Source: Candidatus Saccharimonadota bacterium
GTDB lineage: Bacteria > Patescibacteriota > Saccharimonadia > Saccharimonadales > SLHW01
Reading direction: 5' to 3'
Assembly (NCBI GenBank): GCA_050486305.1
Contig: JBJHDA010000001.1
Location: 563,071 to 627,070, forward strand
Length of the DNA stretch: 64,000 nt
The position numbers were made by a program, and so were the translations under genes. Position 1 is the first letter of the stretch. Each line of letters begins with the position of its first letter. The notes beneath the pieces are model-generated. The model was not told the origin of the DNA, did not search any database, and saw only the letters and a program-made list of their open reading frames with translations. Below, piece after piece: positions 10,497-48,180 of this stretch.

Positions 10497-10920
10497 GATT
10501 ACCTGCCTCGTTTATAAAGTCTTCTAAAATATACGTCGCAGCGAGCGCATCAACGGATGAAGATGGGCCTTTGCGCTTGCCGCCTGCTTTTCGTAGCTCT
10601 GCTTCTGCCTTACGTGAGGTTCCGGCTTCATCCTGCAGATAGATCGGAATCTTTAGATAGCCCTTGAGCCTGTCTGTAAATGCCCTAACTTCTTTGGTTT
10701 GGGCAGTTTCGTTGCCGTCTAGACTCCTCGGAAGCCCAACAACAACTGCCACGGCAGACTCTTCTGTAACGAGCGAGTCCAAGCTCTTAAGCACAGTATC
10801 ATCATGCTGCACGACGGTGCAAGGGGCAGGAAACCCATTGGCAATAAATGCCCTCGCAACTCCTATCCGCTTACCGCCGACGTCCAAAGCTAGAACGGTT
10901 TTTTGTTGCTGCTGTGTCAC
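10471..10920 (-). CDS. ruvX: putative pre-16S rRNA nuclease / Holliday junction resolvase-like RuvX (YqgF)
   Basis: VLALDVGGKRIGVA N-terminus. GTG start overlaps the upstream stop (GTGA). Confidence 0.9.
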   Translation of the reverse strand: MTQQQQKTVLALDVGGKRIGVARAFIANGFPAPCTVVQHDDTVLKSLDSLVTEESAVAVVVGLPRSLDGNETAQTKEVRAFTDRLKGYLKIPIYLQDEAGTSRKAEAELRKAGGKRKGPSSSVDALAATYILEDFINEAGNRELLNKIN

Positions 10921-12623
10921 TCTTCTGACTGGTCCTCATCTTCGGTTTCATCTGGAAATTCAGCTTGCTCACCCTGCTGCACAATAGTAATGGTAATTTT
11001 GTCAGGGTTATCGGGAGTCGAGAAGACCCAGAACGGAGCGTAGTCGATTTGCACTTCTCGCACCCCATCACGGAGGAATATTGCAGACTCTGTTTCGCTC
11101 CGTCGCATACCGGCAATTTCCTGGGTGAGCTCTTCAATATCTATGTCCGGACCGATAGAAACTATCGTTCGAAGCCGAAGCCTGGTCGTATCGCCATCGG
11201 TTGAAACGACGCGAAGTGAAGCCTCGTCCAAGCCATCGTCAAGAATCGCTTGCCGATCAAAGTCGAACTCCTCACCCAGCTCCAGCTCGATCAGCCGACG
11301 CAGGTCATCACGTGAAACCCCAAGCATTGTATAGCGTGTCGATATGCTCACTGTCACCTCATCGGTCTCATCGCCTGCTTCATGTGATGCATCTACATCT
11401 GTGCTGCCTTCATTAAACGTTTCCGTAACAGGAAATAGTCCTTCGATGTCATGCAACTCTTCTAGCTCCGCGCGGGCAGCGGATTCCGAACCTTGCTCAA
11501 CTTCTTCTCTCGCAGCCCGGATATCCCGTGAAGCGACCACTGAGACCATTTCATCGGTTCCACCTGTCATGGAAGTACCAGAACCGTAGACGGTTTGAGA
11601 TGAATATCCCTCTACCGTATAGCTTGAGGCGCTGATATTATAATCAGCTCCTCTGTTATCTGCCCTCACAGGAACGTCTGCCTGACCATTCTCATCACAT
11701 GACGGATTGAAAATCGAGCCGGATATCGTACTTCCAGACACTTGGACCGTCTCGGTTGCACGAAACACCCTACCATTAGCTGCAATAAGTGCATTACCTT
11801 CACTGATCGTAATTGAGTCAGCTGCTGAGGTCTCACAATTCGTTACGGTTACTGTTCCTGTGGCCCTGTCTCCAACATTCCTCTCGCCGGTTGTCCGGAC
11901 AGATGCCTCGTCTTCATAGGTATACTCTTTTTCAACTGCCGGGAGTACGATATTGTCCTCTACGATTTCATCAATATCTGTCCGTACATCAAACTCGATG
12001 GTTTCAGCAACGCTTTGCGCACTGGTTTCTACAATAATCTCCGCTCGCGGCAAAACAAAGGCTGCAACGTACCAACCGATGATAAGGAGTACAAGCCCGA
12101 CCCCGCCAAGAATTAACCAAAGCCGAAACTTGTTGAAGTTCGGTATCGTGACACCTTTTTTCTTTGGCTTCTTCTTTTTTTTGCCGGCATCGTCGTCAAT
12201 ATCAAGATTTGGCAAATCACCTAAGTCTATCGTGTCTTCTTTTTCTTTCGCCTTATCGGCAAGTTCGCCAACGGGCTTGGATGGGTCAACCGCATTTTCA
12301 TCTGCGGCTGACTCTGCAGACGCTGACGCTGTTGGAGCATCTGGTATATACGGCTTTGATTCTGTCGTTCGGGCGACATGCATTCCTGCAGCGCCAGCTA
12401 GCGGCAGAACCGTTTTATCGCTGGTGATTAGAACTGTTTTCTTCTTTGCCTTTTCAGCTGCCTTTTTCAATAACTTAATATTTATTATGGACTGAAACGA
12501 GGGGGCACGTTTGGGCAAAACAACGGCAACGATGCTCGCTGGAGCTTCTTGAAGCTTCGTTATGACAGACGTGATTTCATCGTTCGTATCAACGTATAGT
12601 ATGGTCTTTTTTGGTTCGCTCAT
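10917..12623 (-). CDS. conserved-looking membrane protein (568 aa), function unknown
   Basis: The ATGA overlap with ftsA implies co-translation. There is a cytoplasmic N-domain, a Lys-rich linker, one TM (WLILGGVGLVLLIIGWYVAAFVL) and a large acidic extracytoplasmic part. Confidence 0.7.
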   Translation of the reverse strand: MSEPKKTILYVDTNDEITSVITKLQEAPASIVAVVLPKRAPSFQSIINIKLLKKAAEKAKKKTVLITSDKTVLPLAGAAGMHVARTTESKPYIPDAPTASASAESAADENAVDPSKPVGELADKAKEKEDTIDLGDLPNLDIDDDAGKKKKKPKKKGVTIPNFNKFRLWLILGGVGLVLLIIGWYVAAFVLPRAEIIVETSAQSVAETIEFDVRTDIDEIVEDNIVLPAVEKEYTYEDEASVRTTGERNVGDRATGTVTVTNCETSAADSITISEGNALIAANGRVFRATETVQVSGSTISGSIFNPSCDENGQADVPVRADNRGADYNISASSYTVEGYSSQTVYGSGTSMTGGTDEMVSVVASRDIRAAREEVEQGSESAARAELEELHDIEGLFPVTETFNEGSTDVDASHEAGDETDEVTVSISTRYTMLGVSRDDLRRLIELELGEEFDFDRQAILDDGLDEASLRVVSTDGDTTRLRLRTIVSIGPDIDIEELTQEIAGMRRSETESAIFLRDGVREVQIDYAPFWVFSTPDNPDKITITIVQQGEQAEFPDETEDEDQSEE

Positions 12624-13930
12624 AGTCGTAACATCCTATCAATTTTCTGGCGGATGGTTCCAGTCTCGTTGCCTTCTTGTTGCTGAATCGTATCGAGCCC
12701 TACCCGCATAAGCCCCATCGCAGTAATAAACGTGTGGTCGTTCACTCGGCCAGTTGTATCAGTTATGTTAACGACTTCCTTTGGGTCAATGTGCTGAATA
12801 TTCGGCTGCTTTGTAAACGGAAGATCTCCGTACCACTTTTGACGCTTCAGTCGATTAACAAGCGGCTTCAGGCTTGATCCACCGCCACATAATAACACTT
12901 GGTTTGGCAAGTAATCGAGCTGGTCAAATTCACTCAATGCCAGCTCTACACCGCTCACCCAAACATCAAGCGTTTTATCAATAGCCTTGAGGCTGCGAGC
13001 CTTCTCCGGCTCCGACAGCGTGTCCTTCGTAAGGGCGAGCTTGTGTCTTTCTGCGTCCGTAAAATCCAAATCATACTCCCGCTCAATCGACCGGGTGAAC
13101 GCCCGTCCGCCAATACCGAACATTTCGGTACCTTGCAGTCCGCCCTCTTGTATGACGGCGATGTCCGTTGTGCCGCCACCAACATCCATTAAGATTGCGT
13201 TTTTGTTCTGGTTCGGGTCGTTACCGATTACTGATCGTGCGACGGCAAACGGCTCGGCGGCGACTGCTAATAAATCAAGGTCGAGTTCTTCGGTTACTTT
13301 CTCTATCGCGCCGATGTGTATCATTGGCGCAAATGCTGTGTATAACTGTACGACGACGTCCTTACCCTGAAACCCGAGTGGATTCGTAACTACGTAGCCA
13401 TCTATCTCGATACTAACAAGCGCACTGTTGACGAGCCGGATTTCAATATCCTTACCGCCCAGATCAACGAACAGTTCCCGACGGGCTCTATCTGCCGCCC
13501 GTTCTTGCACGAGCCCGATAATCTGCTCTATCTCGTCAATATCCAGTGAGGTTTCCGGAGCCTTGCGCGTACACTTTACGGTTACGGTCGTCCCTTTTAC
13601 AAGCTCCCCGGCAATACCGACAACGGCGCTCCGGGCGCTGACCTCAGCCTGCTTTTCTGCCTGCGACAATGCACTGTCACAGTTCTGGACAACAGCAGCA
13701 ATATCCGAAATCGCTCCTGCTTGCATATCAGATAGTTGCTGATGAGCGCGGCCTACGCCGATGATTTCAATCGCGTCATTTTTTACCTCGCCAATTAGGG
13801 CTTTTACAAATTCAGTACCGATATCTAGTCCGACCAGATATTGGTTTTCGTTTTTTTCGGTATTGCGGCGCCCAAGCGCCTGCGTCATCCCCTGGATTTT
13901 TTTGAACATAATCAGTTTGTAGTATAGCAC
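12620..13930 (-). CDS. ftsA: actin-like cell division ATPase FtsA
   Basis: LVGLDIGTEFVKAL phosphate-1 motif, MDVGGGTTDIAV phosphate-2 motif and LCGGGSSL adenosine motif. Start is uncertain (alternatives at M8 and M15). Confidence 0.8.
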   Translation of the reverse strand: MLYYKLIMFKKIQGMTQALGRRNTEKNENQYLVGLDIGTEFVKALIGEVKNDAIEIIGVGRAHQQLSDMQAGAISDIAAVVQNCDSALSQAEKQAEVSARSAVVGIAGELVKGTTVTVKCTRKAPETSLDIDEIEQIIGLVQERAADRARRELFVDLGGKDIEIRLVNSALVSIEIDGYVVTNPLGFQGKDVVVQLYTAFAPMIHIGAIEKVTEELDLDLLAVAAEPFAVARSVIGNDPNQNKNAILMDVGGGTTDIAVIQEGGLQGTEMFGIGGRAFTRSIEREYDLDFTDAERHKLALTKDTLSEPEKARSLKAIDKTLDVWVSGVELALSEFDQLDYLPNQVLLCGGGSSLKPLVNRLKRQKWYGDLPFTKQPNIQHIDPKEVVNITDTTGRVNDHTFITAMGLMRVGLDTIQQQEGNETGTIRQKIDRMLRL

Positions 13931-17178: not shown

Positions 17179-18087
17179 CTAAAACGGCCGTTCGCCACGC
17201 TCGATCTTGTTCTGGATTCGCTTAAGCTCATACCGCTTACCAAGCCAGAACGTTGAAAGTATAAAGGGTATCAGGATTGCGGCTGGTTGCCACAATATTC
17301 GAGTCGTGGTTGTTGCCGCCGTATCAACGGGCTCACCAACATCCTCTTGGCTTAACGGTCCGTTCGCCACGCCGACTAATTGCAGGAAAGCAGGGCTGCC
17401 GTTGGCATCAGTCGCCTTAATAATAATGTTGTATACACCTGGTCGCTCGTAAACATGTTCTATATCAAACGAACCAGGAAACTCTCTACTAAACAAATCC
17501 GGCGACGTACCATCACCCCAGTCAACACTGAACGCATAGGGGCCTTGACCGCCAGAAAGGTCAATCGGCCATACTAGTGTTTCACCAGGGTTAGCGCCTC
17601 GCTTCGCATAATTACTCGAAAGGGTTGGTCTGCCAACAGCCCCGACGCTATCATCCTCGTACGTTACCGTTACGACGTTCGAATCCGGGCCCGCTTGATC
17701 GAGCGCATCGAAAACCCTGGCTACGAGTTCATTTTCGCCGATAAAGAGATCTGTTTGGATACTATAGCTGCCGTTTTCACAGGCCGCGGAGCCGCTAAAA
17801 ATGCCGTTTTTGAAAAGCTTGATAATTAGGTCGTCGCCAGCAGGACACAAACCAGACACGGTAATTGGCAGCGATGTGAACGTTTGACCATTGCTCGGCA
17901 CGGCTATCGTGGCAGCCTCAGACGGAGGCGGTGATGAAATACTGCCTTGCATACCGATTGCCCCACCTTGCGGGTTTTCCGGCGGAGGACTCACCTGAGC
18001 ATTTGCGATGCTCGTTATAGCGAATGCGAACATGGCAAATGCAGCAACAAACAACAGAGAGCCTGATGCTATTTTGATTTTTTGCAT
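17179..18087 (-). CDS. surface protein with signal peptide, Ig-like region, PKD domain and C-terminal TM anchor
   Basis: Track ORF extends to 18177. The ATG at 18087 gives the signal peptide MQKIKIASGSLLFVAAFAMFAFAITSIANA. PKD-like motif WGDGTSPD...HVYERPGVYNIIIKATDANG. C-terminal TM plus a basic tail. Confidence 0.7.
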   Translation of the reverse strand: MQKIKIASGSLLFVAAFAMFAFAITSIANAQVSPPPENPQGGAIGMQGSISSPPPSEAATIAVPSNGQTFTSLPITVSGLCPAGDDLIIKLFKNGIFSGSAACENGSYSIQTDLFIGENELVARVFDALDQAGPDSNVVTVTYEDDSVGAVGRPTLSSNYAKRGANPGETLVWPIDLSGGQGPYAFSVDWGDGTSPDLFSREFPGSFDIEHVYERPGVYNIIIKATDANGSPAFLQLVGVANGPLSQEDVGEPVDTAATTTTRILWQPAAILIPFILSTFWLGKRYELKRIQNKIERGERPF

Positions 18088-18223
18088 AATGTTTGTATTT
18101 ATCACGAGTGTAATTCGTTTACTGTCATTACTATGGTAGCGCCTCTGTTGTAAAAAAACAAGTCTGCAGGTAGGCAATACGAGTTACCTGCAGCTTGTTT
18201 TGTTTCGGTGTTATGGGCTAGAT

Positions 18224-19216
18224 TTAGCGTCGTTTTTTCGTTGACTTCTTGTTGCTTCGTTTGTTTACGATGCTCACCACCCCAAAGGCGATAGCTGCAA
18301 GTGCCACAAACAAGACGATGAGCGCCCAAACCGGTATATACCAGAAGGTTGCTTGTGCGCTGATTGGCTCTCCGCCTCCCTGCATATGGCCGATGTTTGC
18401 TTCGATAGTGTAGCGGCCGAACCAGCTCCTAGAATCTAAGTCATCCTGGAAGCGACGAACAGTGTCAGGGAGAACGTATGCGCGAGGGCTGCTGTCATTC
18501 AGCTCATACGTCTGCACGACATCACCAAACATGTTCCGTATCTGAATACGTCCGTTTGGCTGAAGGTGGATATCACCGCTGTTACGAAGCCTTACAAGAA
18601 CGCTCACGTCACCGCCGGTAAAGAACGACCGCAGTGAACTGTCCTGAGCAGCAGAAAGCTGAACAAGATCAAGCCGTTCAGTTAGATCGCCCGGTACCCG
18701 GACTAAGGCAATACTGCCAACACTCGCAGAAAGCGTTACGTTTCCGGCATCTTGCAGGTTAGCTGGTTCAAACCGGACGATTCCGTAATATCCGCCAGCG
18801 TTCGCGTCTTCAGGTACCGTAATCGGTACGTCTATCTCGACACGCTCTCTTGCGTCTAGGTCAAAGCTATCGATGTTTCCTACCAGCGATCGAAAGCTGT
18901 TTCGGGGTGCAGGAGCGTTTTCGTCTAAGATTGGCCGGACTTCGCCATCCTCATTCTCGCCTGCAACAAAGTCATTGACTATGGCTACCGCTGTTAGTGG
19001 TACATCTGTCGGGTTTTCGATGGTAATATTCATTACTTCGGTCTGGCCAGGCTCGATAACAAATTCTGACGTTACCGGAGATATTCGGAATCCATTACCA
19101 ATTGCGCTTTGTTCGCCAGCTGGCTGCGCAAACAGATTCGTAACCGACAAAAGGCTTACTAATAAAAACGCCGTCGCAATCGTAAATAACCCTAGTTTCT
19201 TGATAGAAAGTGACAT
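18224..19216 (-). CDS. membrane-anchored surface protein, DUF916/DUF3324 (CscA)-like, tentative
   Basis: The ATG at 19216 is preceded by GAGGG. Signal peptide present. FRISPVTSEFVIEPGQTEVMNITIENPTD resembles the DUF916 opening by eye. C-terminal TM (VWALIVLFVALAAIAFGVVSIV) followed by a KRSNKKSTKKRR tail. Confidence 0.6.
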   Translation of the reverse strand: MSLSIKKLGLFTIATAFLLVSLLSVTNLFAQPAGEQSAIGNGFRISPVTSEFVIEPGQTEVMNITIENPTDVPLTAVAIVNDFVAGENEDGEVRPILDENAPAPRNSFRSLVGNIDSFDLDARERVEIDVPITVPEDANAGGYYGIVRFEPANLQDAGNVTLSASVGSIALVRVPGDLTERLDLVQLSAAQDSSLRSFFTGGDVSVLVRLRNSGDIHLQPNGRIQIRNMFGDVVQTYELNDSSPRAYVLPDTVRRFQDDLDSRSWFGRYTIEANIGHMQGGGEPISAQATFWYIPVWALIVLFVALAAIAFGVVSIVNKRSNKKSTKKRR

Positions 19217-19269
19217 TTTCCCTCTCTTTTTCTTTCTCATTTAGCTTATGATTGAATCATAGCAACATT

Positions 19270-20340
19270 TTAAAAGTTTGCCAAGGTTAGGAACGACATT
19301 GTCGTAGAGTAAATACCTGGTGCTTGACCCGAGTCAACATTGGTAATATAGCTTATTGTAAACTTTCTCAGATCGCTTGGGACAGGGCTGGTTACGATCG
19401 CCTGCCCGCTTGCGAACATAAACTGGTTGACCGTGTTGTAGTTTGCGGTCGGTGTCGCAGTCCCTGGACCAGTCGGGTTCGCCCCGACGTTAGGGTTGGT
19501 ATTATTCCTTAGGTTCAATCCGAACTGACTCACACCTGTTTGCGAGGCAGCCGGTGTCGGCAAAGCATTTATGACGTTATTTCCTGACATAAGCGTCGTA
19601 CCATTAATACGCGTTGCGTAGCCGTTAGCAGCATTGGTTGCCGCGACTATTTGCGAGGTGGCTGACCTGGTAGCTGCGTCGGAAAACTCGCCCAAATCTA
19701 TAAAGAAGCTGGTCGCAGTGGAGCAATCCATACCCTGAATCTGCACTCCTGCGCAAAATGTCAGGTACGGCGGCACCTCGGCTTCGACGTTTACGTCGAT
19801 ACTCGTTGATAAAGCGACACCGCCAGCCTGAGTATGCGGCCCAGAGGCGTCTTCTGTCGGGTAGGTAAATATCCTGGCGTAAAAGGAGCCGAGATACGAT
19901 GGGTTCATAATCTCGCCTAAATCATATTCCAGTTCTGCTTCTGTTGGCACTTCTGGAGTTCTGGTGAGGATAATATTGTAGTCATCACTGTCTCCGTGAA
20001 TCGAAAAGCCCGTCTCGCCCTCCTCTTCCAACAGCACAGCATCTGAAGCATCGAAATCGTCCGGCGGATCACAAGGAGTGCCGATAATCGGCGTATCGCC
20101 ACAGTACTGTATCCGAATCGAGCCAATCGGCACAGAAAAATCAGATATAGTAAAGCCCACTTTATGTTGCCCGACATCACTCGGTCGAGGATTCTCGAGC
20201 TGCACAAACCGGTCTTGAACGACACTTGCCGAAGTTGAAAACGGTGATAGCACCATTACAAGTGCTATCACCGTTATAAGAACTGTGCTTACAGCTATGA
20301 TTCGAGAGCGGTCAGTCTTTGTTTGCATCCTCACATTCAT
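19270..20340 (-). CDS. secreted surface protein, paralog family member 3 (356 aa)
   Basis: N-terminal signal/TM. Shares YCGDTPIIG..C, LTFC, SQFGLNL and a C-terminal PGIYSTTMSFLTLANF with the next gene. Confidence 0.7.
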   Translation of the reverse strand: MNVRMQTKTDRSRIIAVSTVLITVIALVMVLSPFSTSASVVQDRFVQLENPRPSDVGQHKVGFTISDFSVPIGSIRIQYCGDTPIIGTPCDPPDDFDASDAVLLEEEGETGFSIHGDSDDYNIILTRTPEVPTEAELEYDLGEIMNPSYLGSFYARIFTYPTEDASGPHTQAGGVALSTSIDVNVEAEVPPYLTFCAGVQIQGMDCSTATSFFIDLGEFSDAATRSATSQIVAATNAANGYATRINGTTLMSGNNVINALPTPAASQTGVSQFGLNLRNNTNPNVGANPTGPGTATPTANYNTVNQFMFASGQAIVTSPVPSDLRKFTISYITNVDSGQAPGIYSTTMSFLTLANF

Positions 20341-20371
20341 AGTGTAGCATCATGCTTTTGCTTCTATCCCT

Positions 20372-21598
20372 CTAGTAACGACCAGTAGCGATGAAGTCTA
20401 GCGTCGTGGTGTATATGCCCGGCTCGGTTGTGTTGGAGATGTTACCGAGGAAAACGAGCACACCGGTAGAAAATTCACCTGCGTTCTTCAGCGCTATCGG
20501 GCTACCGTAGGTTGCAAGTGTTTCGCCTGTGTCGAAGGCAAATAGTGCTCCGTTGTCGAAACCGTTGCCTTGACCTTGCGAAGTACCGTCACAATCAGCG
20601 TGGTCATATGGTGTAATTGCGCTCAAGCCTCCAGTATCGCGACTATCCGGGTGTGTGTACACACACAGTCCGAACTGCTCTGTTCCAGGGGCGCTTGCAG
20701 TATCAGTGTCGCCTATCGCATCAATACTGAATGAACCTGATGTCAATGTCTCACCTTTCATTCGAACAGTCGCACCAGCTGATGCATTCGTTGTAATGTT
20801 AAATTTCGCGTCTTTACTGATGGATGGATTGGTTGAATCCAATACACCGTTATCATCACCTAAAATTACCGGATCAGAGCTAAACCCAGAGCAGGTGTTA
20901 TAGTCGTCCAACTGCGGATCAGGATCAAACACGAGAGCATCAGTAAGGATACAGAACGTCAGACGTTCCTGCACCTTAGCCTCGATGGTAATTAGCTCTG
21001 CTGTACTGAGCGCGATACCACCGGCAAAGTTCGGGTTGTTTACGTCGGCAACTGAGTAAGCGTTGGCTGCTGTATCTGTCTCATACACCATTATCCTGGC
21101 GTAGAACGTCTCAATAGCAGTTGGATTGTCTACGTCTTCTATCGTGAAGACAACACTGTCACCAGCTCCGGTTGCGTTTTCCGGTGTAGCGTTCGTTAAT
21201 GTTACTGTATTTTCTTCTGCTCCACCGGTCGATTCATTAGTGAAGGCTGCTGTAAAACCGGACAGGTCTACATCACTTGGTTCAGTGTGGTCTACGCTCG
21301 CACCACTAAGGCTGAACCCAGCCGGCACCGTACAGTCTGAATCACCGATAATCGGTGTTTCTGCACAGAATGCTACGACAACACCGCCGATGTCGTCGGT
21401 ATTCGGTACCTCAAAATCCACTCGGTACGATACTTCTTCAGCGCCGCCCTCAGAAGTGCTCATCCGAATTTCACGATCACCCAATATCGTATAGGCACTG
21501 GCAGTCTGGCTTGCAAGCAGCGGCACCATAGTGGCCACAAGCAGTAAGGCTGCAGCAGCTATCGACGTTGAGCGCCGTAGTTTATCTACAAAAACCAT
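20372..21598 (-). CDS. secreted surface protein, paralog family member 2 (about 408 aa)
   Basis: The ATG at 21598 lies 8 nt after AAGGAG. Signal peptide present. FCAETPIIG..C, LTFC and GTEQFGLC motifs, with C-terminal PGIYTTTLDFIATGRY. Confidence 0.7.
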   Translation of the reverse strand: MVFVDKLRRSTSIAAAALLLVATMVPLLASQTASAYTILGDREIRMSTSEGGAEEVSYRVDFEVPNTDDIGGVVVAFCAETPIIGDSDCTVPAGFSLSGASVDHTEPSDVDLSGFTAAFTNESTGGAEENTVTLTNATPENATGAGDSVVFTIEDVDNPTAIETFYARIMVYETDTAANAYSVADVNNPNFAGGIALSTAELITIEAKVQERLTFCILTDALVFDPDPQLDDYNTCSGFSSDPVILGDDNGVLDSTNPSISKDAKFNITTNASAGATVRMKGETLTSGSFSIDAIGDTDTASAPGTEQFGLCVYTHPDSRDTGGLSAITPYDHADCDGTSQGQGNGFDNGALFAFDTGETLATYGSPIALKNAGEFSTGVLVFLGNISNTTEPGIYTTTLDFIATGRY

Positions 21599-21748
21599 AT
21601 GCAATTCTCCTTTTGTATTGGCTTTTTATTTTTAGTACTAGCACTTATCACCTTAGCATAAGGGGTTTATGAGAAGCAACTGAATCGCTGGTAAGTTATC
21701 CACAGCTCCTAAGCCCGCCTGTAGCGGCAATATTAGTAATGCTGCTGC

Positions 21749-22474
21749 CTAATACTGCCCTGTGGCGACCAAAATCTGGCGGAACTCGTACTGACCTGAT
21801 GGCGTTGCTTCTGAAATGTTAAATATATAGGAGATGGTGTAGAGCGTCACGCTCGTACTTTCCTCTGAATAGGCTATCGCATCACCTTTGTTGTACAAGA
21901 AATTATTTGGCTGAGCATAATCACTGGTGACTTGGCCGAAAGAGAACGAGCCGTCGGGTTGTTGAATCAATCCTTCGCCGACTGCTGGGTCGGTGTTCTC
22001 TACAAGATTTATGGCAAACTGCTCAGTTCCAGGCGCGGAGGAGGTCGGAGTGCTCGGGGTGGCAAACTGGTGGCCGTTTGCAACGTTCGTTGGCGGATCG
22101 GCATCGGTTGTCACGCTGTAGCCGCCAGCTTGCCAGGCACGAACATAAAACTGCCCCTGTGCCGTGTTCGTTTGTGAGGTATCAAGAAAGCCAAGATCGA
22201 TATTGTTGCCAGTTACCACGAACTCCAGAAACGGTTCATCCGTCGTATTAAACCCTGCAAACGCCCTAAAGTTATCACTGTTAAGCTCGCCGATGCCTAG
22301 TTCACCCAGCGTCGCTCGGCTTCTAAAATTATCTGACTGCAAGTTCGTTTCCCCGCCGGAGCCAAAGAACGTCTGATCCACCTGATAATTCGGCGAAGAA
22401 GATGTCTGAGCCAACACAGATGCCGGCAAGACGAATGACCCGAATATAACCAGTGCGATAATCAGTTGTTTCAT
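21749..22474 (-). CDS. secreted surface protein, paralog family member 1 (241 aa, single-domain version)
   Basis: Signal peptide MKQLIIALVIFGSFVLPASVLA. GTEQFAINL motif and C-terminal PSGQYEFRQILVATGQY. Confidence 0.7.
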   Translation of the reverse strand: MKQLIIALVIFGSFVLPASVLAQTSSSPNYQVDQTFFGSGGETNLQSDNFRSRATLGELGIGELNSDNFRAFAGFNTTDEPFLEFVVTGNNIDLGFLDTSQTNTAQGQFYVRAWQAGGYSVTTDADPPTNVANGHQFATPSTPTSSAPGTEQFAINLVENTDPAVGEGLIQQPDGSFSFGQVTSDYAQPNNFLYNKGDAIAYSEESTSVTLYTISYIFNISEATPSGQYEFRQILVATGQY

Positions 22475-22618
22475 AGAAAAATCTTTGTCTTAATGTGTTC
22501 GTTCACTTGACGTTTATTATAACGTATCATATGCGCTTTGCTCGAAAAACTTTATAGATTATGCTTATTCGTAGTACTATTGAAGCATAAGCTTATGGGC
22601 AGACCGTAAATTATAGCC

Positions 22619-23596
22619 ATGGATAATGATTCGCAAAACAACAACGACTTAAACACACTGGAAGATCAAGGCACCGTCGTCAGTCAAGACGGAGCAGATT
22701 CCCCGCCCGGCGCTGCACCGCAAGCAGGTGGCGATAAGCCAGAAAAAAAGCCAAAAAAGAAGGGGAAATTTTCTGTTTCTCGCTTGATTAGCCGAGTAAA
22801 CATATACTTTTTGTTCTTCGTACTAATCGTCGTAATTGCTGGTACCGTCGTGTTTATCGGCTACCAACGTGACCGTGATAGCGGAGACGATGACCGGATC
22901 GGCTCACAAAGCTTGACCGCTGAAGAACTTGAACAGTTGGCAGGAAGTGACACTCGTATCGGTGACCCTCAGCAGCTTCTGACCGTCGAGTCTAATACAG
23001 TTTTTTCTGGACAGGTGCTTGTTCGTGACAATCTAGACGTAGCTGGCCAGATAAGCGTTGGCGGGAGCCTGAGCCTACCTGGTATAACCGTATCCGGGAC
23101 AAGCAACTTTGACGAAATCCAAGCAAACAGCTTATCCATCGCTGGTGATACAAATATACAAGGGCAGTTCGTCGTTGATGGCAGCCTAACCGTTGGTGCA
23201 GGCGGCAGCTTCGGTGGCGGCATTTCTGCACCACTCATCACAACCGATCAGCTACAGCTTACTGGTGATCTGCAAATAACCAGGCATATTGATACCGGTG
23301 GGCCTACACCGTCCGTGTCAAACGGTGGAGCAATCGGATCCGGCGGCACAACTTCAATCAGCGGCAGCGACACCGCTGGCACAGTTGCCGTTAACCCTGG
23401 TAATGGTGCTGGCAATGGTCCGGTCGCAGTCGTAACATTCGCCAATAGCTTTAATCAAACACCTCATGTCGTGGTGACCCCCGTCGGCAGAAGCGTTAAT
23501 TACTATATAACCAGAACAACAACAGGCTTTACGATTCACGTATCAGGCAGCCTTTCGTCAGGCAGCTTTGCTTTCGATTATATCGCTTTTGATTAG
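22619..23596 (+). CDS. membrane-anchored beta-helix-repeat surface protein (325 aa)
   Basis: Lys-rich cytoplasmic N-terminus, one TM, then repetitive G-x-hydrophobic repeats (VAGQISVGGSLSLPGITVSGTSNF, GDTNIQGQFVVDGSLTVGAGGSFGGG). A beta-rich C-terminal domain follows. Transcribed divergently from the paralog cluster. Confidence 0.65.
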   Translation: MDNDSQNNNDLNTLEDQGTVVSQDGADSPPGAAPQAGGDKPEKKPKKKGKFSVSRLISRVNIYFLFFVLIVVIAGTVVFIGYQRDRDSGDDDRIGSQSLTAEELEQLAGSDTRIGDPQQLLTVESNTVFSGQVLVRDNLDVAGQISVGGSLSLPGITVSGTSNFDEIQANSLSIAGDTNIQGQFVVDGSLTVGAGGSFGGGISAPLITTDQLQLTGDLQITRHIDTGGPTPSVSNGGAIGSGGTTSISGSDTAGTVAVNPGNGAGNGPVAVVTFANSFNQTPHVVVTPVGRSVNYYITRTTTGFTIHVSGSLSSGSFAFDYIAFD

Positions 23597-38827: not shown

Positions 38828-40033
38828 CTACCGTCTCGAGTTCATGGCGTAATTTTTAGTCGATACACCATATTTTTTTGCCGAGCGCATGACTGACTTA
38901 CGAAGTAGCTCTTTTAAATCTTGCTTTGTGGCTATGCCGTTATCGTATGCGCACCGAAAAACGTCTCTAATATCGTTTATCCTATCGAAGTTTGGGTACT
39001 TTTTCTTGAAAGACTTGACTAGCGTGTCCTGTGCTTCTGTTTCTATGTATTCAGATCTTGAACTATTAAATGATTCTTGGCGTGGAAATTTTGCAGGATT
39101 AGGCTCTTCGGCTAGGAATACCATAGGAAGGTCAGTTTGACGGCCGCGCTCAAGCTTGCCTCTTTCTGTTTCAAAAACTCCTGGCGCTTCAGCGTACAAA
39201 TCTTTCAGTATGTCAGCAACTGCCACCATGCCACTGTGTGTCTTTATTACAAATAGCAGATTGTCTCTTCTGAGTACCGTGTGTTCACCCTTTGCAGTTG
39301 ATACGTCCCATAGCTTTCCGTAGATTGATTTATCATAAATATCATCCATTCTGCGCACAGTCTCAGCCGCAACATGTCCAACCGCTTCGGGCTGCGTATG
39401 AACGTATACTCGCATTGGATGGTCAAGTAAGTCTTCTTCGTTGGCCGGCTTTTCATATGTGCCGAAGTGCAAAAATTTACCATCAAAGTGCTCTCGCTGA
39501 AACAATTCGTGGTACTTAACTCTCTTGTCTACCTGGTAGTGCACTTGCTTGCCTTGCCTAAGTAGCTCTTGTTTCTTGTCTTTATTGCTTTCATCCTCTA
39601 GCTGATAGAGCCTTAATCTGGCTTCGTCGATATCAGTAAACGTACCCTTCGGTAAGCCCCATGCTGCCTCAAACAGCCATGCAATTCCCTGCTGAGCTTT
39701 CGCTTTTTGTTCATCATCCAAGGTTTCATTTATAGAATAATACCCTTCTGCTTTTTGCTCACCTAGCAATACATCAACATACAAATCGTCATCTGCAGTT
39801 ACCTGAAACTCTGGTGGGTCCATACTTGTTTGATTGAAAAATCCCCAGCCACCTTCGTATGAGGCAAGGGTTTCCTCGCTGAGCTGAACTTCGCCTGCGT
39901 CAAGCATACCCCTCGCAGCCAGATGACGATGAGCGTGTGGCTGAATAGCAGGATGATAACTGTCTATACCCTGTAAAGTATCTTTCCATGTAAGGCTACT
40001 AGACGGTTCTGTTTGTGAATTCTTTTCTAACAT
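38828..40033 (-). CDS. hypothetical protein (about 401 aa)
   Basis: Track ORF extends to 40105 via a TTG that touches palindrome E, so the ATG at 40033 (MLEKNSQ) is preferred. Visibly lower GC than its neighbours. No family recognised. Confidence 0.55.
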   Translation of the reverse strand: MLEKNSQTEPSSSLTWKDTLQGIDSYHPAIQPHAHRHLAARGMLDAGEVQLSEETLASYEGGWGFFNQTSMDPPEFQVTADDDLYVDVLLGEQKAEGYYSINETLDDEQKAKAQQGIAWLFEAAWGLPKGTFTDIDEARLRLYQLEDESNKDKKQELLRQGKQVHYQVDKRVKYHELFQREHFDGKFLHFGTYEKPANEEDLLDHPMRVYVHTQPEAVGHVAAETVRRMDDIYDKSIYGKLWDVSTAKGEHTVLRRDNLLFVIKTHSGMVAVADILKDLYAEAPGVFETERGKLERGRQTDLPMVFLAEEPNPAKFPRQESFNSSRSEYIETEAQDTLVKSFKKKYPNFDRINDIRDVFRCAYDNGIATKQDLKELLRKSVMRSAKKYGVSTKNYAMNSRR

Positions 40034-40105
40034 TTTTGTTCTTAATTGTTGTACTAATTTTACCACGACTTTACTGGCCTGCAGTTGAAGGACTAAGCAC
40101 CTCAA

Positions 40106-40388: not shown

Positions 40389-41648
40389 TCAGCTATCCAG
40401 GTAGTCTTGGCAGAAGCGTTCAAAGATGGCATTAGTCCACCCAAACCCCACCTGCGTCGGATAAACCCCTTTCACCGGCGGCTTATGCGGCTGCACGACG
40501 TTGTACTTCTCTAAAAACGTGCCGTTCTTGGTAAACCAGTCTAGATTCGTCTTGATCCAGCGGAGCGCGATATCCTGCGCCTCGCGGTGGTAGCCGTAGC
40601 GCTCCAGCCCTTGGGTTACGATAAATTGCAACGGTGCCCAGCCGTTCGGATAGGCCCACTGTGCCGGGATGCCATTGCCGGGAACCCGTTGGTTGAACGT
40701 GTAGGTGTCTGTCGTAGAGAGGCCGCCTTTTTGCACGAAAACACGCAGCGACTTCTCGAGCTTTTTGGCCCGCTTTTCGTCCACCATGCCGACCCACATC
40801 GGGTAAAATCCGGCCAGCGAGGCGACGGTGCTTTGTTTGCGCTTTTTATAATCGTAGTCGTAGTACAGGTTCTTGGTTTTGTTCCACATCAGCTTATCGA
40901 CGGTTTCTGCGCGGTGGCGGGCAGCGGTCTCGTACGTGCCGGCGGTCCGCTTATCGCCCTTGAGCCGGTACCAGCGGGCCAAATCCAGCTCGTACTTATA
41001 TAGCAAGCAGTTTAGATCTACCGGCAAGAAATCCAGCGCCCGGCGCTTGAATCGGGGGGTCATATCCCAGCCGCTCTCCGCCTCTGCCAAGTCGTTGAGC
41101 ATGTTGATGTCGTAGTAACGTGATAAGCCCTCGTGCACCAGCCGGTTGTGCGGCTTCGCCGTGCCCAGCCAGACGGTTTTGTACTCTTTCTCGGCGGCGG
41201 TCATCATGCGGTCCAGCCACTTTTGATCCAGCTCGTACGTATCGTACACGTCAAAGATAAACGAGGTAAAAACGGGCGGCTGGCTGCGACCCATAAGGTA
41301 GGTACGCGACGCATTTGGAATAACGCCGAACCGGTCAATCAAGGAGACGAAATTCTCTAAAATGCCGAGCAGCAGGTCTTTATGCGTCTCGCTGAGCAGC
41401 CCTTGGGCCATGAAGTAGCTGTCCCAGTAGTAGAGCTCGTTAAAATCGAAGTCGTTCTCCTGCATATAGGTTGGCACCAGGTAGGGGTGCGGCAGGCCGA
41501 TAAGCGTGTCGTCGTCTTTTGGGTTGTCGCGTTTGAGCTTCTCCCAATGCTCGGCGATATACACGCGAGCCTTGGTGACATCCGTCGGGTGAAGCTGGAC
41601 GATTGGTTTTCTGATGGTGTTAAGAATGAGCCTTGTTTTGTGTATCAT
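40389..41648 (-). CDS. alpha,alpha-trehalase (GH37)
   Basis: GH37 signatures ELYYWDSYF, AQWAYPNGWAPLQ and GFGWTN. The gene is rich in spurious ORFs in all frames, which indicates high GC. Confidence 0.85.
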   Translation of the reverse strand: MIHKTRLILNTIRKPIVQLHPTDVTKARVYIAEHWEKLKRDNPKDDDTLIGLPHPYLVPTYMQENDFDFNELYYWDSYFMAQGLLSETHKDLLLGILENFVSLIDRFGVIPNASRTYLMGRSQPPVFTSFIFDVYDTYELDQKWLDRMMTAAEKEYKTVWLGTAKPHNRLVHEGLSRYYDINMLNDLAEAESGWDMTPRFKRRALDFLPVDLNCLLYKYELDLARWYRLKGDKRTAGTYETAARHRAETVDKLMWNKTKNLYYDYDYKKRKQSTVASLAGFYPMWVGMVDEKRAKKLEKSLRVFVQKGGLSTTDTYTFNQRVPGNGIPAQWAYPNGWAPLQFIVTQGLERYGYHREAQDIALRWIKTNLDWFTKNGTFLEKYNVVQPHKPPVKGVYPTQVGFGWTNAIFERFCQDYLDS

Positions 41649-41733
41649 AACTGCTTTGTTTCGTAGATTAACTTCTTAATGCGGTTTGCACTATACAGTA
41701 CTGTTAGCATATCATGAAGTGGAAGCTTTTCTT

Positions 41734-43767
41734 ATGGTTAAAAACGCATCAGACAAACACAAGCACCACCACAAACCATACCGAATGCACCATATTACAC
41801 TGGCTGGGTTTTCCCTGTTCGCGTTTTTAATCTGTGCAACGTATTTGACGATTTTTTACGTGTACTCTCCGACCCAACCGCCGCTGGAGCAGATGGCTCA
41901 GGTGCGCGGGGCAACAACATCGGAGCGCGTTACTGTTCGTTCGTCGCTCGGGTTTGCACTGGATATAGACACCGGCATGTTTGATGCAGCCGCCTATGAG
42001 GCTGCTGACGACGATGAAGACATCCCGCTACAAGCGCTCACCGAACAACGCGGTGATACGGCGATTACAGCAGTAACACTTACGCCACAGGCTGGCGCCG
42101 TAGAACCGTACGCCCAAGCCAGCCAGCTATCGCTGCTGCACGAAACTGCCTCCGAATTACCGACATTATTGGCAGAATTTGCAGACGAGGAGCTTTACGA
42201 GCTGGTAGAAACTGGCGAAGAACCGATTGGCCCGCTGAACGCTGAAAAGCGGGTGTACCAGTACCGCGGCAGCGACGTCTATAGCGTTGTTTGGTCGCCG
42301 CTAGCTGATGAACCAAGCGAATACACCATAATCGTCCGTGGGCTCATCGGGACACCAGAACTGCCCGGCGCATATGCCGAGCTACTGGGAAGCATCCGGC
42401 TCGGTGAGACATTGGCACTGCAGTTCTTCCAATCCGGTGGAGATAATTGGGTCAGCGGCAGTGAGTCAACCAGACAGTATTTATCTGACTTGCTATCACC
42501 AGCTGTGGTGAAGCTGTATCACATTGTGTGCGCAGAAATCGCGTTTGAGTTCCAGGCGGCGATCGAGCAGCAGTGCCGTGCCACGACCGGCTCCGGCTTC
42601 TTTATTTCAAGCAACGGCTACATAGCGACAAACGGGCATGTGGTGGTATACGAGCCAGAGGATGCACTGGTAGATGCCCTGCTGAGCAACCCGATGCAGC
42701 TCTCGAGCTATCTGGGCGATGTTATCGGACTGTCTACGCTGGAAATTGCCACGCTGCAGCACCGGCCGGAAAAGCTGGCTTCTGTCGTGTCGCAAATTTA
42801 TAGCTTGCCGGATGATTCGGTCAGTTTCACCGCGGAGAGCAAAGTCATTTTAGCGGCTATCGGCAACACGCCAATCCTGCCGGAAACCGAGGAGGAGGTG
42901 CTTGATCTACTGGATTTCCGCAGCACCCGCGATATTAAAACTGCCGATTTGGTCTACTATGATTATTCTGGCAAAGATCAGATAAATATTGTTAGTCAGG
43001 ACGCAGCGGGGTTCTCGCAAAGCGACGTGGCACTGCTGCACATCCGTATGGAAAACACTCCGATAATCAGCCTGGCCGCGCCGGCTGATGCCACACCCGG
43101 GCAAGCCATTACTATACTCGGCTTCCCGAGCGATGCGGAAAACGAGCTGGTCGACCAGACAGAGCTGGCCGTAAGCACCACAAACGGCACCATAAGCTCT
43201 ATCCGCACCGCTGCTGGCGGCACCGGCACGCTATTACAGACAGATGCCGATGCCTCACAAGGCAATAGCGGCGGACCAGCCGTACTTACCAGTAACGCCA
43301 AGGCCGTCGGGCTGCTGACCTACCGTTATAAAGACGAAACGAAACAGAACGCCGCGAAAAGTTATTTGCGCGACATTACCGATATCCGCAGTTTGCTCGA
43401 TACGCACGGCATCACCCTAGACGTAAACAGCATAACCCAACAAGCCTGGAGTAACGGGCTTGAGTACTTTGCGAACCAACGGTTCCAGCGAGCCATCCAA
43501 GAGTTCGAAAAAGTCCAAGATGCGTTTCCGGCCCACCGCTTGGTCGAGAGGTACATCGCCGCGAGCGAGCAGAACATTGCGGATGGCAACGAGCGCACCT
43601 CACCGGCAGCCCAGTACCTCGGGCTGGGCGGCAGTATCGGGCTGCTGGCAATCTCTAGCCAATTGATACGGCGACACCATCGCCACCACCGATCCTACAA
43701 GGAAAACCAGGCTACCCATACCGAACACAAGCCAGATACGCTACCGCCAAACGACGGTTCGGTGTAA
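41734..43767 (+). CDS. membrane-anchored trypsin-like serine protease (S1 family) with C-terminal helical region and TM
   Basis: The ATG at 41734 (MVKNASDKHKHHH). N-terminal TM. Catalytic triad contexts GSGFFISSNGYIATNGHVV, SDVALLHI and QGNSGGPAV. The C-terminus has a hydrophobic segment and a His-rich tail. Confidence 0.8.
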   Translation: MVKNASDKHKHHHKPYRMHHITLAGFSLFAFLICATYLTIFYVYSPTQPPLEQMAQVRGATTSERVTVRSSLGFALDIDTGMFDAAAYEAADDDEDIPLQALTEQRGDTAITAVTLTPQAGAVEPYAQASQLSLLHETASELPTLLAEFADEELYELVETGEEPIGPLNAEKRVYQYRGSDVYSVVWSPLADEPSEYTIIVRGLIGTPELPGAYAELLGSIRLGETLALQFFQSGGDNWVSGSESTRQYLSDLLSPAVVKLYHIVCAEIAFEFQAAIEQQCRATTGSGFFISSNGYIATNGHVVVYEPEDALVDALLSNPMQLSSYLGDVIGLSTLEIATLQHRPEKLASVVSQIYSLPDDSVSFTAESKVILAAIGNTPILPETEEEVLDLLDFRSTRDIKTADLVYYDYSGKDQINIVSQDAAGFSQSDVALLHIRMENTPIISLAAPADATPGQAITILGFPSDAENELVDQTELAVSTTNGTISSIRTAAGGTGTLLQTDADASQGNSGGPAVLTSNAKAVGLLTYRYKDETKQNAAKSYLRDITDIRSLLDTHGITLDVNSITQQAWSNGLEYFANQRFQRAIQEFEKVQDAFPAHRLVERYIAASEQNIADGNERTSPAAQYLGLGGSIGLLAISSQLIRRHHRHHRSYKENQATHTEHKPDTLPPNDGSV

Positions 43768-43777
43768 TATAAACGAC

Positions 43778-44773
43778 ATGAATGCACCGACCAATGACCA
43801 CCCCGCTACCTACCCGAACGAATCCGTCGGCAGCAGAATGTCAGAAAATGTACCGATATTTACGGCACACACCAAGTTCAAGTCGATAGAAAACGAGCTG
43901 TTCTCTAAAGCATGGGATAGTGTTAGTACCATTTACGTGGTGGACGAGCACCACAAGCTCGTCGGTATCGTGGATATCGCCAAAACCGAAACATCTAACC
44001 CGGACGCGGCCCTCGCCGACATTATGGCGGCACCTCCGGCCGTTTTGCACCCCCGTGCCGATCAGGAAAAAGCTGTTTATCTGGCTATTCGCGATGATAT
44101 CGTTGCGGTTCCGGTAACGGATAAGCATGGCGTACTGCTCGGCGCAGTTACCTCCCACGCCATCATCGACATCATGCACGAAGAGCACATAGAGGACACG
44201 ATGCTTGGCGCCGGTGTGCGTGACAAGCACTCGAATGTACTTAAACTGATACAGGCTCGAACGACACTGCTGGTCCGTTCGCGTACACCATGGCTGATTA
44301 TCGGGCTGGTGCTTAGTATGATGCTCGGGCTCATTGCCAGCTTCTTTGAAGAAACGCTGGAAAAATCGATTGCCCTGGCCTTTTTCATCCCAGTTATCGT
44401 GTATATCGCTGACTCCGTCGGCACCCAATCAAGCACGATTACCGTGCGAGCGCTCGCGATGATGAAGCTTAAGTACGGACGATACATCGTAAAAGAACTG
44501 CTCGTCGGTATGGTGCTTGGAGTAATAATGGGCGCACTTGGTGCAGTTGGCGCATTTATTATCAGCCAGTCTATGGATGTTGCGCTGGTAGTAGCACTTA
44601 CCCTGCTCTGTGCCAGCACGATTGCATCGGTGCTTGCTTCTGCCGTACCGATTACACTTAAATCACTCGGCAAAGATCCGGCCATGGGAAGCGGGCCGCT
44701 CGCGACCGTGCTGCAGGATATTTTGAGTTTGGTTATCTACTTTCTGTTCGCGATACTTATCATCGGTTCATAG
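43778..44773 (+). CDS. mgtE: MgtE-type magnesium transporter lacking the N-domain
   Basis: CBS pair (IYVVDEHHKLVGIVD, VPVTDKHGVLLGAVT). TM-domain motifs IADSVGTQSS and DPAMGSGPLATVLQD. Confidence 0.85.
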   Translation: MNAPTNDHPATYPNESVGSRMSENVPIFTAHTKFKSIENELFSKAWDSVSTIYVVDEHHKLVGIVDIAKTETSNPDAALADIMAAPPAVLHPRADQEKAVYLAIRDDIVAVPVTDKHGVLLGAVTSHAIIDIMHEEHIEDTMLGAGVRDKHSNVLKLIQARTTLLVRSRTPWLIIGLVLSMMLGLIASFFEETLEKSIALAFFIPVIVYIADSVGTQSSTITVRALAMMKLKYGRYIVKELLVGMVLGVIMGALGAVGAFIISQSMDVALVVALTLLCASTIASVLASAVPITLKSLGKDPAMGSGPLATVLQDILSLVIYFLFAILIIGS

Positions 44774-44894
44774 TTCACCAGCACCACTGGCGGGTAGCTT
44801 TTCCACAAGATTATCGCACGTGTAATATAATCCACATTCTCTGGCGTATTGACGTGCTAGCATGACGGCATAATAGAAGATTAAAGGGGGAAGC

Positions 44895-45479
44895 ATGAAC
44901 AAAGGAGCAGCGAACGCAGGGCTAATATGGGCTGTGGTGGCTATAATGGTAGTCGCTATCGGAGCGTTTTTGATATTTGCGAATATCGATGAGGACGAGA
45001 ACGACACTACTGACCCAACAGAAACCGAGGAAATAACAGAGGAAGGAGCGCCAGAGCGGCAAAACATCGTAGAAGTTGCGGATGCCAACCCGCAGTTCAC
45101 CACACTTGTAGCCGCTATTCAGCAAGCCGATTTAGTCGGTACTCTGTCCGAGGAAGGACCATACACGGTGTTTGCGCCGACCAACGACGGCTTTAACACA
45201 ACGGCCGAGGAGCAAGACGCAACCGTAGAGGAGCTGCTGGCTCGTGATGACTTACGGGATATCCTTACGTACCACGTCGTTGAAGGTGAGATTCTGGAAA
45301 TAGACTTACTAGAACAAGATGGCCAACAGCTTGAGACGTTGCATGGACAAATGCTAGAGATTACCGTAGAGAATAATGAGGTCTTCGTGAACGGCGTACA
45401 GATTGTAGCTACTGATATCGTTGCCGGAAACGGCGTCATTCACGCGATTGACGCGGTACTGTTGCCTACAGAAGAGTAA
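44895..45479 (+). CDS. fasciclin (FAS1) domain protein with N-terminal TM/signal
   Basis: AAGGGGGA RBS. FTTLVAAIQQADL, YTVFAPTNDGF, LTYHVVEG and VIHAIDAVLLP motifs. Confidence 0.85.
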   Translation: MNKGAANAGLIWAVVAIMVVAIGAFLIFANIDEDENDTTDPTETEEITEEGAPERQNIVEVADANPQFTTLVAAIQQADLVGTLSEEGPYTVFAPTNDGFNTTAEEQDATVEELLARDDLRDILTYHVVEGEILEIDLLEQDGQQLETLHGQMLEITVENNEVFVNGVQIVATDIVAGNGVIHAIDAVLLPTEE

Positions 45480-48105: not shown

Positions 48106-48180
48106 AATTCTACGAAGCTTTAGCGAAAATAGAATAAGCAATGCTGTTACAATTCTACGAAGCTTTAGCGAAGTAGAATG
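48106..48180. repeat. two copies of a 22-nt direct repeat, each forming a hairpin
   Basis: AATTCTACGAAGCTTTAGCGAA occurs at 48106-48127 and 48151-48172. Each copy is followed by (A/G)TAGAAT, which pairs with ATTCTAC. Confidence 0.85.

Follow-up and report, generated by a model that had tools for sequence, protein, structure and literature searches.

A probable compact pam pilus operon in a Saccharibacterium and the DUF916/WxLIP kinship of its chaperone

The gene cluster and the Pam pilus system

The stretch of DNA considered here, referred to as the window, comprises 64,000 nucleotides from a Candidatus Saccharimonadota bacterium (assembly GCA_050486305.1, contig JBJHDA010000001.1, positions 563,071 to 627,070). 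It carries a cluster of six genes for hypothetical envelope proteins that very probably represents a compact pam operon, encoding an usher-less pilus system assembled by donor-strand exchange, in a Saccharibacterium. The six open reading frames (ORFs) had been pointed out in an earlier note on this DNA and were all found where that note had placed them. The analysis documents their family membership, paralogy, domain architectures and synteny, together with the affinity of the presumed chaperone for WxLIP/DUF916 proteins.

Five of the genes lie on the minus strand. The first of the operon encodes PamT, a protein of 241 aa (21749-22474). It is followed by a variable two-domain pilin with an ORF of 410 aa (20372-21604; 408 aa from an ATG at 21598), a core two-domain pilin of 356 aa (19270-20340), a chaperone-like protein with an ORF of 338 aa (18224-19240) and PamR, whose ORF of 332 aa (17179-18177) probably has its true start at M31 (18087). 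The sixth gene (22619-23596, plus strand) is divergent and encodes a membrane protein of 325 aa, the ‘tail-fibre-like’ neighbour of the operon. The cluster is flanked by mnmA and alaS on one side and by atpC, atpD, atpG and atpA on the other. Hydropathy places a hydrophobic signal segment at the N-terminus of each of the five minus-strand proteins and, in the 338-aa protein and PamR, also a C-terminal transmembrane (TM) helix with a basic tail. A scan for promoters and terminators returned counts equal to the shuffled expectation, and no further pam genes occur elsewhere within the window.

No outer-membrane usher is encoded, as only the six genes lie between atpC and mnmA; the same is true of 58 related operons described below. 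The LPXTG signals and the pilus sortase of sortase-assembled Gram-positive pili were not found in the cluster either. The motif LPx[TSA]G is absent from all six proteins and no ORF in the cluster encodes a sortase.

The Pam pilus, a filament of Ca. Mycosynbacter amalyticus assembled by donor-strand exchange, was solved by cryo-electron microscopy (Troman et al., bioRxiv 10.64898/2026.03.03.709456, 2026). Filaments shed by this organism contain two pilins, PamA and PamB, and each subunit contributes its linker to complete the C-domain of the subunit that follows (Troman et al., 2026). The same operon encodes a third pilin, PamE, a single-domain tip pilin that has no donor strand, PamT, and two PapD/FimC-like chaperones with a C-terminal TM helix, PamC and PamD (Troman et al., 2026). 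PamR, which resembles RbmA and has an additional N-terminal strand and a TM helix, is proposed to act as terminator and anchor, while a ‘tail-fibre-like’ gene and ATP synthase genes are hallmark neighbours (Troman et al., 2026). Wherever filaments, donor-strand exchange, the order of subunits or contact with a host are invoked below, they are taken from this preprint or inferred.

The Pam models of NCBIfam release 20.0 (NF058578, NF058579 and NF058581) place the cluster in this system. PamR matches NF058578 (CPR_pilus_PamR, an equivalog model named ‘pilus system RbmA-like protein PamR’) at E=7e-120, with 399.4 bits against a cutoff of 300. The 241-aa protein matches NF058579 (CPR_pilus_PamT, also an equivalog) over residues 4-241 of 241, with 268.4 bits against a cutoff of 240. 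The domain model NF058581 (Pam_pilin_C, cutoff 55) recognizes the 356-aa, 241-aa and 410-aa proteins with 158.6, 132.4 and 88.9 bits, respectively.

Like the system of M. amalyticus, the window encodes PamT and PamR equivalogs, two-domain pilins with the Pam C-domain and paired cysteines, and a TM-anchored chaperone with two Ig-like domains. It likewise lacks an usher, belongs to the Saccharibacteria lineage and has tail-fibre-like and ATP synthase neighbours. The two differ in gene content: the window has one chaperone where M. amalyticus has two (PamC and PamD), and two two-domain pilins where M. amalyticus has three (PamA, PamB and PamE), the large 55-kDa PamA type apparently being missing. 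The earlier note had proposed a surface assembly or filament system of a reduced-genome lineage, built from paralogous secreted proteins, and had suspected strand complementation as its mode of assembly. Both ideas agree with the published Pam pilus, from which filament formation and strand exchange are taken here. Its description of the system as uncharacterised is outdated by the preprint and the NCBIfam models. Because the system has already been described and has curated models, the locus is an ordinary new member of it.

Pilins, tip protein and anchor

The three secreted pilins are paralogs, as the earlier note had recognized. The 356-aa and 410-aa proteins align end to end (BLASTP E=3e-26, 28% identity), and PamT matches the 356-aa protein at E=2e-12 and the 410-aa protein at E=3e-4, over the C-terminal ~150 residues of each only. 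Comparison of family profiles with hhalign gave 99.8% for PamT against the C-terminal domain of the 356-aa family, and 99.9% and 99.3% for the 410-aa family against the N- and C-terminal domains of the 356-aa protein, respectively. A C-domain is therefore common to all three proteins and an N-domain is also common to the two larger ones. The motifs quoted by the note (GTEQF/GVSQF, LTFC, a C..TPIIG..C loop and an aromatic C-terminus) are present and rank among the best-conserved columns in 40-81 orthologs. None of the three has a wall or membrane anchor, whether LPxTG or a C-terminal TM helix.

PamT, of which 398 homologs were collected, consists of a signal peptide, ~60 aa with three S-x-N-Y-(R/Q) repeats and a Pam pilin C-domain. 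The repeats, within residues 27-70, read SPNYQ, SDNFR and SDNFR in the window and SPNYR, SANYR and SANYQ in the consensus. Located at the mature N-terminus and conserved, they may form a tip-specific cap or binding element.

The mature 410-aa pilin has a mass of ~38.8 kDa and three Cys pairs; the published PamB has 38.7 kDa and three Cys pairs (Troman et al., 2026). The 410-aa protein belongs to the variable class of shaft pilins and is probably of PamB type. The 356-aa protein, with two Cys pairs, is the core pilin, and its place in the operon matches that of PamE, an orthology that is positional. An AlphaFold2 (AF2) model of the latter, built with 70 orthologs, has a mean predicted local distance difference test (pLDDT) score of 93.2 and a predicted template-modelling (pTM) score of 0.53. 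It comprises an N-terminal beta-sandwich (42-179), a low-confidence linker (181-190) and a C-domain (193-354).

The linker is the sole internal segment of low pLDDT in this monomer model. It contains the candidate donor strand V-N-V-E-A-E-V (residues 183-189; 19774..19794, minus strand), recognized by its position between the domains and its conservation in 70 orthologs. V189, P190 and P191 are invariant, and the P-P pair leads into the L-T-F-C strand of the C-domain. A second candidate, I-T-I-E-A-K-V (residues 205-211; 20972..20992, minus strand), occupies the same place in the 410-aa pilin, follows an identical h-x-h-x-A-x-V pattern and is retained by 81 members of the family.

PamR offers a third candidate. 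Starting from M31 (17179..18087, minus strand), the protein has 302 aa, the longer ORF to 18177 beginning at an upstream TTG. Its signal peptide is followed by an N-terminal strand flanked by Pro, then by Ig/PKD-like domains and, at residues 264-282 by hydropathy, by a C-terminal TM segment. The PKD-like anchored protein noticed earlier is thus PamR, although its Pfam PKD matches are weak. The strand A-I-G-M-Q-G-S-I-S (residues 43-51; 17935..17961, minus strand) lies between PPPENP and SSPPP, just after the signal peptide, and is conserved in 56 orthologs with the consensus S-V-G-L-E-G-T-I-S. It has in common with both pilin linkers the pattern h-x-h-x-(A/G)-x-h. In the published system, PamR is predicted to place its additional N-terminal strand in the last pilin (Troman et al., 2026). 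By their position and conservation, and by analogy with the published PamA and PamB structures, the two pilin linkers and the PamR strand would all serve as donor strands. PamR is described as RbmA-like, with tandem FnIII/Ig-like domains (Troman et al., 2026); unlike RbmA, a biofilm matrix scaffold of Vibrio cholerae, it has a TM anchor and the extra N-terminal strand.

Foldseek of the full 356-aa model returned only generic tandem-Ig adhesins and integrin domains (Als3, ClfA/B, FnBPA, PapG, CfaE and FimH). Nothing meaningful emerged for the TasA/camelysin, SCPU and Fimbrial Pfam families, the only matches being SCPU in 2/70 orthologs at E~4 and Fimbrial in 1/70 at E~3. As a separate observation, residues ~115-166 of the core pilin N-domain match DUF2808 (PF10989, a family of unknown function) in 24/70 orthologs, with a best E of 9.6e-6; the window protein itself reaches E=0.06.

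The earlier note had read the C-terminal ending of the pilins as WxL-like. For comparison, 29 WxL clusters were taken from metagenomes by the published DUF916 motif NQIDKxxxYFDLK and verified by Pfam (WxL 2e-63, WxLIP_PGBD and WxLIP_HBD). From 25 verified WxL proteins of these clusters, small, large and pooled WxL profiles were constructed. At a threshold as loose as E<=10, the Pfam WxL family (PF13731) still matches neither the three window proteins nor any of 70 orthologs. In hhalign, PamT, the 356-aa C-terminal domain and the 410-aa family remained below 1-5% against all three WxL profiles, whereas the positive controls reached 98.1% (small versus large WxL) and 99.8% (PamT versus pilin C-domain). 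Forced global alignment of Pam and WxL profiles produced nothing, and hidden Markov model (HMM) scores for WxL on 227 Pam C-domains equalled those on reversed and shuffled sequences. No Trp occurs in either two-domain pilin, and the dual Trp-x-Leu motif is missing. At the sequence level, WxL homology was consequently rejected for the pilins, and the WxL-like reading of their ending does not stand.

Three short colinear look-alikes can nevertheless be seen, V-P-x-x-h-T-F-G/C, G-T-x-x-W/F-x-L and Y-x-T-x-L-x-W/F, which carry no statistical weight. Furthermore, the start of the large-WxL domain (G-T-L-K-L-V-D-V-P-K-E-I-T-F-G; clusters L082-L110) resembles the Pam linker and first C-domain strand, V-N-V-E-A-E-V-P-P-Y-L-T-F-C, a resemblance that profile statistics do not support.

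The chaperone and its DUF916/WxLIP kinship

The chaperone, of 330 aa if translation starts at M9 (19216), begins with a signal peptide and ends in a TM helix and a poly-basic tail. An AF2 model from 69 aligned orthologs (pLDDT 88.4) consists of a signal helix, two Ig-like beta-sandwich domains and a helix at residues 296-326. With Foldseek, this model came closest to the Enterococcus faecium WxLIP, in a structure ‘bound to long WxL’ (9i25_C, E=2e-10), and 9i1y was matched as well. RbmA follows, and then the chaperone-usher chaperones CfaA, DraB, Caf1M and CsuC at 1e-8 to 1e-6.

Sequence comparison leads to the same family. The window protein matches Pfam WxLIP_PGBD (PF06030, formerly DUF916) at E=0.0018 with 18.7 bits, below the gathering score of 27.3, yet 68/69 orthologs match it, the best at 9e-12. 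Many database homologs of the chaperone carry PF06030, and NCBI names one of them a DUF916 protein. In hhalign, the Pam chaperone profile aligned with that of the Firmicute WxLIPs at 93.5% (E=2e-7, 218 columns). With ectodomains only, the value was 89% overall and 93.9% for domain 1 (E=1.5e-7). Scores for the real profiles were 47-49, against at most 23.6 for reversed and 20 column-shuffled controls. Further hhalign values of 47-78%, obtained when the chaperone or WxLIP was compared with other proteins, were set aside, since the aligned columns lay in signal-peptide or TM segments.

For domain 2 the agreement with WxLIP is one of fold, a second Ig-like domain, and of position only: DUF3324 (PF11797) matches 0/69 orthologs, and hhalign on domain 2 gave 0.7%. 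The CscA/DUF916-like assignment in the earlier note is hence borne out for this protein by the orthologs, the profile alignment and the structural match, and its DUF3324 resemblance is not detected in the sequence. That the Pam chaperone belongs, through domain 1, to the DUF916/WxLIP_PGBD family is well supported, and it is the new point of this analysis, the rest of the system being already known. The Pam preprint makes no mention of WxL, DUF916 or Csc (Troman et al., 2026), and no literature linking WxL proteins with donor-strand exchange was found, one 2013 review that uses both terms being left aside. A tblastn search of plasmids with the Pam chaperone, aimed at Firmicute DUF916 genes, yielded nothing. 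The chaperone superfamily itself is large, with 7,950 representatives at E<=1e-3, and 450 of them at E<=1e-30.

As published, WxLIP is built of two Ig-like domains set perpendicular to each other and a TM helix, and one strand is predicted to enter the WxL partner (PMC10599100). This description is strikingly like that of a membrane-anchored pilus chaperone. In the models, likeness to the chaperones of chaperone-usher pili (Pap/Fim, CFA/I, Caf1 and Csu) is at the level of the fold only, PapD_N matching 0/69 orthologs and PapD_C 1/69, at E=0.006. The Pam system and chaperone-usher pili have in common a truncated Ig-like pilin domain that is completed by a donated strand, a boomerang-shaped chaperone of two Ig-like domains and the order of tip pilin, shaft and terminator. 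In contrast to the latter, the Pam system has neither usher nor outer membrane and its chaperone is membrane-anchored. Moreover, the Pam donor strand is an inter-domain linker instead of an N-terminal extension, and each Pam pilin has an extra N-terminal domain.

The comparison with WxL cell-surface complexes (WxL/Csc) of Lactobacillales and Listeria, in which CscA is a WxLIP made of DUF916, DUF3324 and a TM helix, cuts both ways. The chaperone and CscA agree in the family of domain 1 and in their build, with a signal peptide, a pair of Ig-like domains, a TM helix and a basic tail; WxLIP is also the best structural match of the chaperone. In both systems a small single-domain partner is also accompanied by larger partners carrying the same C-domain. 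Conversely, the Pam partners have no detectable WxL domain or Trp-x-Leu, domain 2 has no similarity to DUF3324, no LPXTG protein is present, and the anchor is the TM-helical PamR. Additionally, the candidate phyla radiation (CPR) is not a Firmicutes lineage, and the products of the pam genes would be filaments, not a wall-bound complex.

These likenesses raise the question of whether the cluster encodes a complex of the WxL/Csc type, with the TM-anchored DUF916 protein as a permanent platform and the paralogs as diverged WxL proteins that do not polymerise. The family of domain 1, the structural match to a WxLIP that has a long WxL protein bound (9i25) and an operon logic equal to that of published WxL clusters (PMC10599100, PMC9772566) all speak for such a complex, as do the three colinear motifs that look alike by eye. 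It is nonetheless improbable, given that the pilins gave no WxL signal in any of the searches described above, that the WxL chain 9i25_A (226 aa, present in the PDB copy used) is outside the top 50 Foldseek matches of the full pilin model and that homologous proteins form filaments in M. amalyticus.

A different relationship is conceivable, in which Pam chaperones and WxLIP/CscA constitute one family and the Pam and WxL/Csc systems both descend from an ancient usher-less system of single-membrane bacteria. There, a membrane-anchored protein with two Ig-like domains would have used strand complementation to complete beta-sandwich surface proteins and pass them on. The chaperone half of this proposal is well supported here and the pilin/WxL half is unsupported by sequence; taken as a whole, it is a possibility that we regard as tentative and somewhat doubtful.

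The operon in relatives and the assembly of the pilus

One genome per species was scanned with a PamT profile, which recovered 304 loci with a PamT relative, and the best 80 were annotated with the window proteins. These 80 derive from metagenome-assembled genomes of Saccharibacteria, Saccharimonadales and Patescibacteria, except for two evidently mis-binned records, and PamT is the first operon gene in them. Complete operons are found at 58 of the 80, in the order atpA-G-D-C, divergent tail-fibre-like gene, PamT, 410-type pilin, 356-type pilin, chaperone, PamR, mnmA and alaS. Synteny, which the earlier note had suggested comparing, is therefore conserved across these relatives.

Within the 58 operons, the 356-type pilin, the chaperone and PamR are always single-copy and the 356-type gene is always immediately upstream of the chaperone. 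The 410-type pilin varies in number, with no copy at 8 loci, one at 33, two at 15 and three and five at one locus each. It is also the least conserved component, with a median identity to the window of 31%, compared with 40% for the 356-type pilin, 46% for PamT, 52% for PamR and 74% for AtpD. As 33/58 operons have one 410-type copy, the window presents the modal, compact arrangement. The locus with five copies, from a bog Saccharibacterium (L076, PLTT01000013.1, 10.8-17 kb), has five tandem 410-type pilins of 397-420 aa between pamT and the core pilin.

A few loci possess an extra pilin and a second chaperone after PamR, namely L053 (15434-17671) and L063 (16725-19239), an arrangement that matches the gene accession order of M. 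amalyticus, T-A-E-D-R-B-C. In these two loci, the window chaperone is closer to the post-PamR chaperone (33-36% identity, E 1e-51 to 1e-62) than to the pre-PamR one (26-28%). Similarly, the 410-aa pilin has 31-34% identity to the post-PamR gene (E 1e-31 to 1e-45), against 25-32% to the pre-PamR genes (E ~1e-16 to 1e-20). These similarities suggest that the compact operon keeps the PamB/PamC-type pair. The window chaperone belongs to the PamC/PamD class and would be of PamC type by position in the expanded operons, and the operon order of the window would be T-B-E-C-R. Because M. amalyticus is not among the 80 loci, orthology to PamA-E is positional only.

Conserved order also bears on the idea that the secreted proteins are independent Ig-like adhesins (MSCRAMM-, Als- or PapG-like) that form no ordered polymer, the 338-aa protein being no chaperone. 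The Foldseek matches of the pilin model, which are generic tandem-Ig adhesins and integrin domains, fit such a role, and at a pTM of 0.53 the two domains of the 356-aa pilin are not fixed relative to each other. However, the three pilins are secreted with no anchor, only the chaperone and PamR being anchored, and the succession of tip, pilins, chaperone and anchor is strict in 58 operons. PamT and PamR, furthermore, score above the cutoffs of protein-specific equivalog models, and published filaments are built from homologs of these proteins. Independent adhesins are accordingly even less probable than a complex of the WxL/Csc type.

The divergent 325-aa protein has a Lys-rich N-terminus followed by a single TM segment at residues 53-85 by hydropathy, which argues for a bitopic protein with a cytoplasmic N-terminus. 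A bactofilin-like beta-helix spans residues ~123-210 (Pfam Bactofilin, E=0.0011), and 7/9 orthologs match the same family, one of them above the gathering score. Its C-terminus bears a weak likeness to H-type lectins (H_lectin, E=0.037). The beta-helix-repeat membrane protein of the earlier note is borne out by the bactofilin-like matches. The gene is divergent to and adjoins pamT in 53/58 operons, with atpC next to it in 49/58; its conservation beside pamT argues that it belongs with the Pam system.

That the cluster is a remnant of a phage tail-fibre or receptor-binding module, as the preprint's label for the 325-aa neighbour and weak matches to H_lectin and, in one ortholog, a phage RBP neck might hint, is hardly credible: none of the six proteins has a PHROG match at E<=0.001, base composition is the same in the cluster and its flanks, and the cluster lies between ATP synthase and mnmA/alaS in nearly every relative, a constant position that indicates vertical inheritance instead of a mobile element.

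Some points weigh against identification of the locus as a Pam operon, or narrow it. The chaperone matches no NCBIfam model, and no curated one exists for this component. The formation of filaments and the order of their subunits are carried over from M. amalyticus, which has a larger operon. The PamB- and PamC-type assignments rest on position in expanded operons and, for PamB, also on size and Cys count. Finally, PDB sequence searches with both pilins and a PamT profile gave no relevant match, in a PDB copy that does not contain the Pam structures 25PZ and 25QA.

In a compact Pam system, all five minus-strand products would be exported by Sec, and the chaperone with its two Ig-like domains would be held in the cytoplasmic membrane by its C-terminal helix. 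Pilins would polymerise as the inter-domain linker strand of an incoming subunit displaces the strand of the chaperone. PamT, having no donor strand, would occupy the tip of the filament, and the shaft would consist of the variable, PamB-like 410-aa pilin and the core 356-aa pilin in the PamE position. The N-terminal strand of PamR would be donated to the last pilin, thereby stopping growth, while its TM helix would tie the filament to the membrane. A probable function of the filament is contact with the host bacterium, and the divergent beta-helix/lectin-like membrane protein would be a conserved partner.

Several features elsewhere in the window are recorded for completeness. A tmRNA gene at 48179-48560 (minus strand) was found by Rfam RF00023 with 76 bits and was not reported by ARAGORN, and a tRNA-Glu(UUC) gene is located at 63155-63229 (minus strand). 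Two large ORFs have no Pfam match at E<=1e-4. One, of 425 aa (38828-40105, minus strand), is in the sole low-GC patch of the window (43% versus ~49%), and the other, of 568 aa (10917-12623, minus strand), lies immediately downstream of an FtsA/PilM-like gene (12620-13930). Envelope and transport genes form a run at 40389-45479, on a locally inverted AT skew; they encode a glycosidase of the trehalase family, a 693-aa protein whose C-terminal domain is trypsin-like protease, an MgtE carrying a CBS domain and a secreted protein with a fasciclin domain.

With the cluster read as a compact pam operon, names become available for six ‘hypothetical’ genes: pamT and pamR, the two Pam pilins, the Pam chaperone and their conserved tail-fibre-like neighbour. 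The minimal Pam system is composed of PamT, one core pilin, one chaperone and PamR, and in light of the comparison of 58 operons, that of M. amalyticus is an expanded form. A fast-evolving shaft pilin present in 0-5 copies is what would be expected of a subunit that contacts the host or is antigenically exposed.

Membership of the chaperone in the DUF916/WxLIP family provides the Pam system with a relative outside the CPR at the sequence level. It offers an origin in the surface-protein clusters of monoderm bacteria rather than in Gram-negative chaperone-usher pili, and bears on the workings of the medically relevant WxL clusters of Enterococcus, Listeria and Lactobacillus. If both systems do descend from an ancient strand-complementing ancestor, the restriction of Pam components to the CPR would hold for the pilins only, and strand exchange may also serve to assemble, or even to polymerise, WxL proteins.

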